NCBI RefSeq assembly: GCF_013122565.1
Contig: NZ_CP053258.1
Length of the DNA stretch: 64,000 bases
Direction: 5' to 3' (one strand)
Source of the DNA: Escherichia coli
GTDB taxonomy: Bacteria > Pseudomonadota > Gammaproteobacteria > Enterobacterales > Enterobacteriaceae
In this document: one piece after another, positions 44,080 to 45,364 of the stretch
How positions within the stretch are numbered: position 1 is the first letter of the stretch
Layout: each line of letters opens with the position of its first letter
Position numbers and translations under genes: made by a program
Notes under the pieces: generated by a model
What the model was told of the DNA's origin: nothing
Seen by the model: the letters and a program-made list of their open reading frames with translations, nothing else
Databases searched by the model: none

Positions 44080-44535
44080 TCAGGCTGACGTCATTGGAAT
44101 GAGACTGACGCCATAACGTCGGATGAGTGTGACAACCAGACGGCGGAACGTTTTTGACAGGCCCAGGCGTTTAAGCCGCAGAACCGGGTATGACCACGCA
44201 TCGGTACGTAACAGATATCCGCTGCCTGTAAAATGAATCCATTCTGATTCGCCGGTGTCATTCGTCTGATGCGACAGCGAGTACAGCCAGGCGTTGTCTT
44301 TTGCCGTGATATGCGCGGTACTGCAGCGTATGCCGGTCAGGGCAGCAAATGGTGGCGTGCAGTCTGTTGAGGCTCGGTCAGATTCATCAACAACACGAAG
44401 GGAGTGACCGTTATCGCAGACCACGTTAATCAGTTCAGCAAGCTCAATACCATCGACGTCAACGACAATGCGCCCCATGTTCAGTGCCTGTACGTTAACG
44501 CTGTCGGCTTCCAGCGTCAGGGCCAGTTTCATCAT
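44080..44535 (-). CDS. YeeW-like hypothetical protein (151 aa), downstream of CbtA-like toxin
   Basis: ORF MMKLALTLEADSVNVQALNMGRIVVDVDGIELAELINVVCDNGHSL...; ATG overlaps toxin stop by 4 nt; position matches yeeW relative to yeeV in CP4-44. Confidence 0.6.
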   Translation of the reverse strand: MMKLALTLEADSVNVQALNMGRIVVDVDGIELAELINVVCDNGHSLRVVDESDRASTDCTPPFAALTGIRCSTAHITAKDNAWLYSLSHQTNDTGESEWIHFTGSGYLLRTDAWSYPVLRLKRLGLSKTFRRLVVTLIRRYGVSLIPMTSA

Positions 44536-44906
44536 TTCGCCTGCGGATGCTTACCCAGGGTTATGTTATTTACCGTTCTGTAATTGTCGCGGGTCATCAG
44601 GCCGGTCGCCCTGCGAGCCCGGAGGATATCGATGCTGTTTATTAACTGAGAGCGGGTACAGGCGCTGAATCCCGGCTGGTCGGTACGCACCAGCGCGTAT
44701 TTTTCCACGAGAAAGTTCACCGCAACACACAGTGAAATACCTGCCTCAATATGCTGCTCAATCACACGTTCATCAGCGAACGGTGTGTCATTCAGCGTGA
44801 GGCCGTAGTGCTGGTCCAGCAGACGGCCAAGCAGTATCTGCCAGATGGTGACGGGAGACGGGCAGCGCGATGCCTCCCGTACGTATGTATCGGGTAATGT
44901 TTTCAT
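44532..44906 (-). CDS. CbtA/YeeV/YkfI/YpjF-family type IV toxin (cytoskeleton-binding toxin), 124 aa
   Basis: Translation MKTLPDTYVREASRCPSPVTIWQILLGRLLDQHYGLTLNDTPFADERVIEQHIEAGISLCVAVNFLVEKYALVRTDQPGFSACTRSQLINSIDILRARRATGLMTRDNYRTVNNITLGKHPQAK, family-typical length and N-terminus. Confidence 0.85.
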   Translation of the reverse strand: MKTLPDTYVREASRCPSPVTIWQILLGRLLDQHYGLTLNDTPFADERVIEQHIEAGISLCVAVNFLVEKYALVRTDQPGFSACTRSQLINSIDILRARRATGLMTRDNYRTVNNITLGKHPQAK

Positions 44907-44995
44907 ACTAAAGTTTTTCCTGATATGCAGAGATGAGAAATGGGGAAGTGGCGTGGTGAAAACACCAGGCCGGAGCAGAAGGTTATTCTGATGAT

Positions 44996-45364
44996 TTACT
45001 TTTTCGTTTCGGGCGTCGGATAAACAGCCATATAAACGTAACCTCGACTGCCGAGGGTATCGGCTTTGCAGGTCAGCCCTTTTGCATACAGCGTGACGGT
45101 ATGCTGATGGCGGGGATTCAGCTCACCGCTGGTGAGCATGAGTTCCAGTTGTTTCATCAGTAGCGGAAAGGCCTGGTCCAGATGGTACGCATCCGCGTCG
45201 CTGAACCGGCCTCTGATACCGGCGCGGTCGGCAAGGTAATGCAACCGGTTACTCTCCTGCACCAGACGTGCCCCGAAACAGGGCGTCACGGTGCAGGGCA
45301 GCCCCCACCAGGGGTGGCTGTTGTTGTCATCGGGATGAGTTGTCCCGGAGAGTGTGTCTGACAC
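44996..45364 (-). CDS. CbeA/YeeU/YafW/YfjZ-family type IV antitoxin, 122 aa
   Basis: Translation MSDTLSGTTHPDDNNSHPWWGLPCTVTPCFGARLVQESNRLHYLADRAGIRGRFSDADAYHLDQAFPLLMKQLELMLTSGELNPRHQHTVTLYAKGLTCKADTLGSRGYVYMAVYPTPETKK; immediately upstream of CbtA-like toxin. Confidence 0.85.
   Translation of the reverse strand: MSDTLSGTTHPDDNNSHPWWGLPCTVTPCFGARLVQESNRLHYLADRAGIRGRFSDADAYHLDQAFPLLMKQLELMLTSGELNPRHQHTVTLYAKGLTCKADTLGSRGYVYMAVYPTPETKK

Follow-up and report, generated by a model that had tools for sequence, protein, structure and literature searches.

A CP4-44-like cbeA–cbtA gene pair in an eroding accessory gene block at a tRNA-Ser gene of Escherichia coli

Gene content and genomic setting of the locus

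Within the 64-kb stretch of Escherichia coli DNA analyzed here (the window), a cbeA-like antitoxin gene lies directly upstream of a cbtA-like toxin gene, both on the minus strand (Table 1). They belong to a block of small genes in the order DUF932, antirestriction, RadC-like, DUF987, cbeA, cbtA, DUF5983 and DUF4942, followed by tRNA-Ser. A first-pass annotation made from the sequence letters had proposed a 122-aa CbeA-like protein encoded upstream of a 124-aa CbtA-like protein; its coordinates proved exact, and profile searches placed both products in the corresponding families. The toxin matched Pfam CbtA_toxin (PF06755) over profile positions 1–112 of 112 (E = 7e-61; 203.6 bits, cut-off 25), and the antitoxin matched CbeA_antitoxin (PF06154; E = 1.1e-52; 177.1 bits, cut-off 27); neither match can be put down to chance.

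Table 1 Features of the locus, with positions in the window and supporting evidence
Feature	Position	Strand	Details and evidence
tRNA-Ser(GGA), serX position by ghrA/ycdX	42956–43043	+	ARAGORN; Rfam tRNA, 53.8 bits
DUF4942 gene	43193–44038	−	281 aa; Pfam PF13708, 1.8e-70; last gene of the island on the tRNA side
Terminator-like hairpin with T-rich tail	44066–44092	−	Consensus scan, 11 pairs, 6 of them G-C; pattern match only
DUF5983 (YeeW-like) gene	44080–44535	−	Truncated, 151 aa (family norm 162–163 aa); Pfam
Deletion junction	44097–44102	.	297-bp deletion within GAATGA microhomology; alignment with PapRG-06-5
cbtA-like toxin gene	44532–44906	−	124 aa, ATG start; ORF list and Pfam
Toxin codon F65 (TTT)	44712–44714	−	
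Toxin codon V61 (GTT)	44724–44726	−	
Toxin codon C15	44862–44864	−	
cbeA–cbtA spacer	44907–44995	−	89 nt; AGGA Shine-Dalgarno-like motif 11 nt before toxin ATG
cbeA-like antitoxin gene	44996–45364	−	122 aa, GTG start; ORF list and Pfam
DUF987 (YeeT-like) gene	45385–45666	−	Pfam DUF987, 1.5e-36, residues 1–63
RadC-like JAB-domain (YeeS-like) gene	45729–46220	−	Pfam RadC, 3e-45
Antirestriction gene (ArdB/KlcA-type)	46221–46772	−	Pfam Antirestrict, 3.2e-37; PHROG anti-restriction family, 3.8e-62
DUF932 gene (YafZ/YfjQ-like)	47039–47917	−	Pfam DUF932, 1.4e-50; first in the conserved small-gene block

Both proteins are near-identical to characterized K-12 proteins. Alignment gave 89.5% identity between the toxin and K-12 CbtA over 124 aa, with 62.4% to YpjF and 57.5% to YkfI; for the antitoxin the values were 88.5% to K-12 CbeA, 62.9% to YfjZ and 60.0% to YafW. 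Among solved structures, the antitoxin matched 2INW (7.4e-74) and 2H28 (YeeU; 9.9e-74), as well as 2JN7 and 2EA9 (YfjZ; ~1e-40). In the two closest genomes, PGAP names the products ‘TA system toxin CbtA family protein’ and ‘type IV toxin-antitoxin system YeeU family antitoxin’. The toxin, antitoxin, DUF5983, DUF987 and DUF4942 have no NCBIfam model, and tblastn detected no second CbtA/CbeA copy in the 64-kb window.

Ribosome-binding motifs precede both genes. That of the antitoxin, GAGGA (45372–45376), lies 7 nt 5′ of the GTG start, and that of the toxin lies in the spacer. The spacer RNA folds no better than shuffled sequence (z = −1.44). A simple consensus scan of the minus strand upstream of cbeA found no sigma-70-like promoter, and Rfam searches returned only the tRNA.

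The genes further upstream are YeeT-like and RadC-like, as the first-pass annotation had recognized and the DUF987 and RadC profiles confirmed; what it missed is a +1 frameshift in the YeeT-like gene. Alignment with K-12 yeeT revealed five T instead of four (plus-strand A-run 45483–45487), which yields an ORF of 93 aa with a changed C-terminus, compared with the normal 73 aa. PGAP also reports a frameshift in this gene in PapRG-06-5 and strain 100181. The RadC-like product is 96.6% identical to K-12 YeeS, with the start annotated in relatives falling at the equivalent of 46205, and the antirestriction product is annotated there as a shorter protein of 159 aa. On the tRNA side, the DUF4942 product shows weak PHROGs similarity to a DNA methyltransferase family.

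The island is integrated at the tRNA-Ser(GGA) gene, which bounds it on the left. Its other end falls beyond the window, and the att repeat and integrase are known from PapRG-06-5, the closest relative (99.7% identical), in which the tRNA and flanking genes are the same. There, 14 nt from the 3′ end of the tRNA are repeated ~32.9 kb away, beside an IS3-disrupted integrase gene and next to ycdU. PapRG-06-5 shows the architecture of islands in which RadC/ArdB, CbtA/CbeA and DUF genes lie by a direct repeat, opposite the integrase end (PMC12458937). We considered whether a tRNA-adjacent module with no integrase beside it is anomalous and rejected this idea, because CP4-6 at thrW has the same layout. 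The region was matched in 5,425 of 5,426 complete E. coli genomes, at a median of four places per genome.

This setting bears on the selective role of the pair. Rather than controlling host growth as such, the pair may serve the mobile element, either by stabilizing the island through addiction or by aiding its establishment, within a phage-like ‘moron’ operon that also includes the antirestriction and RadC-like genes. Consistent with such a role, the pair runs in the same direction as the antirestriction, RadC-like, DUF932, DUF987 and DUF4942 genes and is packed closely among them at the att/tRNA end, as in the published island architecture; the block also occurs in Klebsiella and Enterobacter islands, and the neighbors match PHROG anti-restriction and ‘moron’ categories. 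However, IS3 interrupts the integrase gene in the closest complete relative, so mobility has probably already been lost. We regard a role in serving the element as possible but rather doubtful; it concerns what the pair is selected for and not how it acts, and is compatible with a K-12-like mode of action.

The DUF5983 gene and its overlap with the toxin stop codon

The start of the YeeW-like (DUF5983) gene overlaps the toxin stop codon (AATGATGA) by 4 nt or 1 nt, depending on the ATG. The minus strand reads ...GCG AAA TGA TGA AAC TG at this point, and the ATG at 44535–44533 and the toxin TGA at 44534–44532 produce a 4-nt gene overlap, in agreement with the first-pass annotation. Most gene callers start at another in-frame ATG, 3 nt further on, which reduces the overlap with the stop to 1 nt. 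Among DUF5983 homologues, the N-terminus is MKLA in 59, MKLS in 28 and MMKL in 15. The same overlap is present in K-12 yeeW, PapRG-06-5, strain 100181 and Enterobacter bugandensis, and translational coupling of the YeeW-like gene to cbtA is a reasonable expectation from this arrangement.

The first-pass annotation overlooked the truncation of the gene. The 297-bp deletion took out the 3′ end of DUF5983, with its final 17 codons (residues 147–163) and stop codon, as well as the entire DUF957 gene. It was also found in strain 100181 and in all 12 of the public contigs examined that carry the same toxin allele. Pfam detected DUF5983_N (8.6e-32) but only positions 3–73 of 90 in the C-domain profile, and the product lacks the conserved IHxD...TFDW C-terminus, including the conserved H147 and D149 and the TFDW tail. 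AF2 modeling of DUF5983 with 34 close homologues gave an unusable result (pLDDT 34.8), whereas a more diverse alignment raised the pLDDT to 86.3; in the latter model the C-terminal domain is predicted to be well folded (pLDDT ~95), and the lost segment includes the strand at residues 145–149. Comparison with solved structures identified no neighbor and no informative fold match, and the search of a viral library yielded nothing beyond further DUF5983 proteins with no function assigned. One divergent DUF5983 homologue locus was discarded from the analysis; it resembles C-to-T-converted read data, and its proteins are rich in F, L, V and I. The hairpin directly 3′ of the truncated ORF probably marks the end of the operon.

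A retained start/stop overlap in several genomes and genera raises the possibility of a three- or four-part system, in which DUF5983 (along with the DUF957 gene that follows it) would be coupled to cbtA and would modulate the toxin or antitoxin, perhaps as a second neutralizer, a regulator or a trigger sensor. Across E. coli sequence types, DUF5983 is reported to sit downstream of CbtA in every case where the two are associated (PMC10790755) and to adjoin cbtA/cbeA consistently (bioRxiv 10.64898/2026.06.09.728211). Moreover, the terminator-like hairpin was found only after the gene block that includes DUF5983, and the confidently predicted C-terminal fold points in the same direction. Several observations count against this reading: the window copy has no last strand or TFDW tail and its DUF957 neighbor is gone, the PapRG-06-5 gene has an internal stop, K-12 yeeW is a stump, many fragments occur in the family, and Klebsiella loci do entirely without the gene. 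In addition, the DUF5983 C-domain is not confined to CbtA loci, being present also in metagenomic contigs and phages, and PADLOC gave zero matches across the eight genes of the block. We found no published test of a DUF5983 contribution to toxicity or neutralization. On balance, we judge a system of three or four parts quite improbable. Because the YeeW-like gene here lacks its conserved C-terminus, a working third component is unlikely in the window.

Substitutions in the toxin gene

The toxin retains F65, a residue required for FtsZ binding in CbtA, YkfI and YpjF (PMC5624674) and invariant in all 119 homologue cluster representatives. Across residues 55–70, a core that serves here as a proxy for activity and is not a published defining feature, the toxin follows the family consensus everywhere except at position 61. 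It has Val at this position, which is Asp in 117 of the 119 representatives, Asn in two and Val in none; YkfI and YpjF also have Asp. As the substitution affects a near-invariant Asp four residues away from F65, D61V could weaken or inactivate the toxin.

Residue 15 is Cys in the window toxin. Although R15C abolishes MreB binding in K-12 CbtA, residue 15 is an MreB-binding determinant in that protein only; C15 is native to YkfI and YpjF, and YpjF retained an MreB signal in a two-hybrid assay (PMC5624674). Among the homologue representatives, Cys outnumbers Arg at this position by 63 to 27. Given this family majority and the two-hybrid signal of YpjF, C15 is not a decisive argument against MreB binding, and residue 15 is no defining feature of the family.

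Eight lineage-private substitutions were identified in 4.9 kb, and three of them, all nonsynonymous, fall inside the 375-bp toxin gene. This excess has a binomial P of ~0.019, with three substitutions being too few for a firm test of selection. The exact toxin allele was found in public records in 12 contigs from a small lineage.

These data could describe a decaying remnant, in which the ORFs are intact but D61V (with H8Y and T24I) would have attenuated or inactivated the toxin, leaving no toxin–antitoxin function and an antitoxin that is effectively an orphan. The rarity of V61 and the clustering of private substitutions in the toxin gene agree with this, as does the restriction of the allele to a small lineage with the same deletion in every contig. 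The neighbors are, moreover, already broken, through the yeeT-like frameshift and the DUF5983 truncation with loss of DUF957. In contrast, the toxin gene has an intact reading frame, start codon and Shine-Dalgarno-like motif, and F65 is retained. The antitoxin sequence is identical to that of relatives, as would be expected equally under continued need and under drift. We consider loss of toxin–antitoxin function unlikely.

The deletion and the toxin substitutions can also be combined in a single scenario. If DUF5983 and DUF957 were true coupled partners of CbtA/CbeA, the 297-bp deletion might have come first, with D61V, H8Y and T24I then weakening the toxin in compensation. We give this sequence of events very little credence; if it were true, the locus would be a natural experiment showing the canonical two-gene type IV system to be dependent on an additional component.

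Predicted mode of action and comparison with known pairs

We consider it highly probable that the locus carries a CP4-44-subtype cbeA–cbtA pair in a small-gene accessory operon, within a P4-like integrative element or cryptic prophage at tRNA-Ser (serX), and that the pair, by homology, acts as in K-12. The toxin would bind FtsZ at its H6/H7 loop, using a surface to which F65 belongs, and MreB on its flat face. With both FtsZ and MreB blocked, division and elongation would stop, giving lemon-shaped, non-growing cells. The antitoxin, presumably co-transcribed with the toxin, would not sequester it; rather, it would bind FtsZ and MreB and enhance the bundling of their polymers, in the mode that defines type IV systems. 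For K-12, the FtsZ loop, the MreB face and the separation-of-function mutants F65S and R15C are described in PMC5624674, which also summarizes bundling by CbeA, and neutralization by CbeA via the toxin targets is also summarized in PMC5371832. For the window antitoxin, we infer type IV neutralization solely from its 88.5% identity to K-12 CbeA. The module around the pair is eroding, given the frameshifted yeeT-like gene, the truncated DUF5983 gene, the lost DUF957 gene and the D61V change at a near-invariant toxin position.

The CbtA/CbeA pair and its mechanism are already known. Since CbtA/CbeA is the founding type IV toxin–antitoxin system and virtually all complete E. coli genomes carry the block, mostly more than once, this particular pair is of little importance in itself. 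The value of the analysis lies in correct annotation, namely of a CP4-44-subtype pair with intact ORFs, pseudogene-like yeeT-like and yeeW-like flanks, and a rare toxin substitution. The one thread of interest is the role of DUF5983, given that its start codon and the toxin stop overlap in more than one genus; the window is ill suited to such study, as its copy of the gene is truncated.

The gene order of the block matches the annotated K-12 CP4-44, CP4-6 and CP4-57 loci, as had been claimed in the first-pass annotation. The cbeA–cbtA spacer is 88 nt in CP4-44 and 20 nt in CP4-6 and CP4-57 (PMC5371832), and the 89-nt spacer of the window therefore assigns the pair to the CP4-44 subtype. K-12 CP4-44 CbtA/CbeA (YeeV/YeeU) also resembles the window pair in the lengths of both proteins (124 and 122 aa), the GTG start of the antitoxin, the yeeS and yeeT homologues upstream, the yeeW homologue overlapping the toxin stop, and F65. 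However, the window copy lies at another site (serX), its yeeT homologue is frameshifted, and its toxin differs from K-12 CbtA in the N-terminal 15 residues (C15 in place of R15) and at position 61 (V61 for D61). The YeeW-like product has 151 aa in the window and 64 aa in K-12, both truncated relative to the 162–163-aa family form.

The pairs YkfI/YafW (CP4-6, at thrW) and YpjF/YfjZ (CP4-57, at ssrA) are members of the two Pfam families seen in the window and are preceded by the same antirestriction, RadC-like and DUF987 genes. In CP4-6, as in the window, the toxin end of the module abuts the 3′ end of the tRNA, and YkfI and YpjF share C15 and F65 with the window toxin (PMC5624674). In contrast, their identity to the window pair is 57–63%, their toxins (113 and 109 aa) and antitoxins (105 aa) are shorter, and no intact DUF5983 gene lies downstream.

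Erwinia amylovora CbtA/CbeA shares the Pfam families and the two-gene arrangement with the window pair, and its CbeA neutralizes the toxin (PMC6521040). Erwinia amylovora CbtA causes elongation, leaves E. coli unharmed and binds neither FtsZ nor MreB (PMC6521040), which indicates that targets are not uniform in the CbtA family. Whereas that toxin falls in a separate clade, the window toxin groups with the E. coli clade.

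Identity and predicted expression of the toxin and antitoxin genes

The first-pass annotation had proposed a CbeA-like antitoxin gene upstream of a CbtA-like toxin gene, and both ORFs were recovered in the ORF list with exactly the coordinates claimed. The 124-aa protein matched Pfam CbtA_toxin (PF06755) over the full profile length (E=7e-61), and the 122-aa protein matched CbeA_antitoxin (PF06154; E=1.1e-52). The antitoxin also matched the solved YeeU and YfjZ structures (E 1e-73 to 1e-40); a search for a solved structure of the toxin family returned none. Pfam confirmed both of the upstream neighbors that had been named, a RadC-like JAB gene and a YeeT-like (DUF987) gene, identified the YeeW-like gene 3′ of the toxin as DUF5983, and added DUF932 and antirestriction genes upstream and a DUF4942 gene downstream. 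A 5-kb query from the region found matches in 5,425 of 5,426 complete E. coli genomes; the median number of matching places in a genome was four. The closest two, at 99.7% identity, were PapRG-06-5 (baboon) and strain 100181 (human), both from The Gambia, in which PGAP names the orthologues CbtA-family toxin and YeeU-family type IV antitoxin. Separately, toxin residues 14–81 matched positions 268–335 of the PHROG profile phrog_23459 (649 positions; function unknown; E=3e-10), which suggests that larger phage proteins carry an embedded CbtA-like domain.

Every functional step is assigned to this allele by homology. The toxin would bind the H6/H7 loop of FtsZ and the flat face of MreB, and this binding would block division and elongation; the antitoxin would counter this effect by acting on FtsZ and MreB polymers, which it would bind and bundle, and not by binding the toxin itself (PMC5624674; PMC5371832). 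Each gene has a Shine-Dalgarno-like motif ahead of it (GAGGA, 7 nt 5′ of the GTG; AGGA, 11 nt 5′ of the ATG) and a terminator-like hairpin directly follows the truncated DUF5983 ORF, an arrangement that fits a single transcript from cbeA to DUF5983 at least. A simple scan did not locate a promoter for the pair.

Features of the toxin–antitoxin locus and surrounding island
Feature	Coordinates	Strand	Remarks
tRNA-Ser(GGA)	42956-43043		adjoins ghrA and ycdX, the E. coli serX position
Terminator-like hairpin	44092-44066		
Deletion junction	44097-44102		
Toxin gene (cbtA)	44532-44906	-	124 aa, ATG start
D61V codon	44724-44726	-	GTT
T24I codon	44835-44837	-	
H8Y codon	44883-44885	-	
Antitoxin gene (cbeA)	44996-45364	-	122 aa, GTG start
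YeeT-like (DUF987) gene	45385-45666	-	frameshifted
A-run (plus strand)	45483-45487		site of +1 T in the T-run of the gene
Cysteine-rich ORF	46794-47078	-	94 aa
Hypothetical protein	47947-48885	-	312 aa
Hypothetical protein	48951-49361	-	136 aa
WYL/HTH (WYL/DeoR-type) regulator	49845-50552		island cargo
GTPase	50767-51678		island cargo
Winged-helix regulator	52649-53521		island cargo
Chaperone-usher fimbrial operon	55993-61190		island cargo
AraC-type regulator	61578-62399		island cargo

Possible coupling and truncation of the DUF5983 gene

The minus-strand sequence at the toxin–DUF5983 junction is GCG AAA TGA TGA AAC TG. The 4-nt overlap described earlier holds for the first DUF5983 ATG, which has four bases in common with the last codon and stop of the toxin (ATGA). 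Three bases on, in the same frame, stands another ATG, which has one base in common with the stop (TGATG). The second is preferred by most gene callers (homologue starts: 59 MKLA, 28 MKLS and 15 MMKL), and Enterobacter bugandensis has one ATG only, with an ATGA overlap and a product beginning MKL. Annotations of K-12 (cbtA/yeeW), PapRG-06-5 and strain 100181 show the overlap as well. Because start and stop overlap in both readings, translational coupling of cbtA and DUF5983 is a fair inference from sequence with either ATG, the overlap being conserved across genera. Two papers find the position of DUF5983 downstream of CbtA constant (PMC10790755; bioRxiv 10.64898/2026.06.09.728211).

Compared with PapRG-06-5 (L001:10098-10394), 297 bp flanked by two GAATGA copies are absent from the window, and with them the DUF957 gene (65 aa) in full and the final 17 codons of DUF5983 (residues 147–163). 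The DUF5983 ORF thus ends in ...GVSLIPMTSA, whereas without the deletion it ends in ...GVSLIHLDASAECLPGLPTFDW. The normal family length is 162–163 aa, and divergent members (30–45% identical) keep the IHxD...TFDW C-terminus. An AlphaFold model (m994f16273104; diverse alignment) of the full-length protein, rebuilt from the window and L001, had a pLDDT of 86.3 overall and ~95 at residues 66–163; the residues lost are predicted to form the last strand (145–149) and a well-ordered tail. The same deletion is present in strain 100181 and in all 12 public contigs read with this toxin allele. The proposal of DUF5983 as a third component is reasonable in general but undercut at this locus, where the gene is truncated.

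The DUF5983 family is narrow: clustering at 50% gives 217 representatives, of which many are fragments. The model had no significant neighbor among solved structures. The only viral matches were other DUF5983 proteins, from phages of Erwinia and Colwellia; stand-alone homologues of the C-terminal domain are encoded by Erwinia phage pEp_SNUABM_08 and Colwellia phage 9A. This domain occurs away from CbtA, Klebsiella islands carrying the same gene block do so without DUF5983, the K-12 homologue is a 64-aa stump and the PapRG-06-5 gene has an internal stop, which together argue that DUF5983 is dispensable for the toxin–antitoxin pair; a modulatory role is still compatible with these observations.

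The YeeT-like gene is also altered. Through its frameshift, the final 12 residues (residue 62 onwards) give way to a different sequence, and the ORF grows from 73 aa to 93 aa, ending 20 nt short of the cbeA start. In both close relatives, the gene is frameshifted or a pseudogene according to PGAP.

Substitutions in the toxin

Residue 61 of the toxin is valine in the window, aspartate in 117 of 119 homologue cluster representatives and asparagine in the other two; aspartate is also found in YkfI and YpjF. Four residues C-terminal to this position is F65, on which FtsZ binding depends in each of the three K-12 toxins (PMC5624674). Sequencing error was ruled out as the source of V61, the identical protein being in GenBank (e.g. 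KOA35438.1, QJU24618.1) and the truncated DUF5983 neighbor being shared by the 12 contigs read. Eight lineage-private substitutions occur in 4.9 kb, three of them inside the 375-bp toxin gene (binomial P ~0.019) and all three nonsynonymous (D61V, T24I and H8Y). This concentration is suggestive, not conclusive, and the three changes may mark an attenuated toxin. Residue 15 is cysteine. Although R15C abolishes MreB binding of K-12 CbtA, cysteine is native to YkfI and YpjF (PMC5624674) and is the majority state of the family, so C15 says little. One related locus, on a Logan contig (SRR18740011), was unusable as a homologue: F, L, V and I make up most of its translated proteins, a pattern resembling C-to-T conversion throughout (bisulfite-like data).

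The serX island and comparison with K-12 loci

In PapRG-06-5, the island is bounded by serX and, ~32.9 kb away, by a 14-nt repeat of the tRNA 3′ end; this repeat adjoins an IS3-disrupted integrase and ycdU at the far end (L010). In the window, the island takes up 43044-64000 and runs on beyond the window end; in strain 100181, only a 5-kb block beside serX is retained. A recent preprint gives this architecture, a RadC/ArdB, CbtA/CbeA and DUF small-gene operon by a direct repeat at the end away from the integrase, as the usual one for a class of integrative elements (PMC12458937). Two hypothetical proteins of 312 and 136 aa, both conserved in PapRG-06-5, have N-terminal hydrophobic stretches that look signal-peptide-like by eye; Pfam gave no match for either. 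Nor did Pfam match the cysteine-rich ORF between the DUF932 and antirestriction genes, at whose position small genes are called in relatives (81 aa at locus L016 and 84 aa at locus L009).

The three annotated K-12 loci were fetched and their proteins aligned with the window pair, as the first-pass annotation had proposed. The toxin is 89.5% identical to CbtA, 62.4% to YpjF and 57.5% to YkfI, and the antitoxin 88.5% to CbeA, 62.9% to YfjZ and 60.0% to YafW. The gene order is the same across CP4-44, CP4-57 and CP4-6, bearing out the description of the arrangement as canonical. The cbeA–cbtA spacer of 89 nt resembles that of CP4-44 (88 nt), whereas CP4-6 and CP4-57 have 20 nt (PMC5371832). The module borders a tRNA gene with its toxin end both in CP4-6, at the 3′ end of thrW, and in the window, at serX. 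The window thus carries a CbtA/CbeA system of the CP4-44 type within a serX island, which is already known biology.
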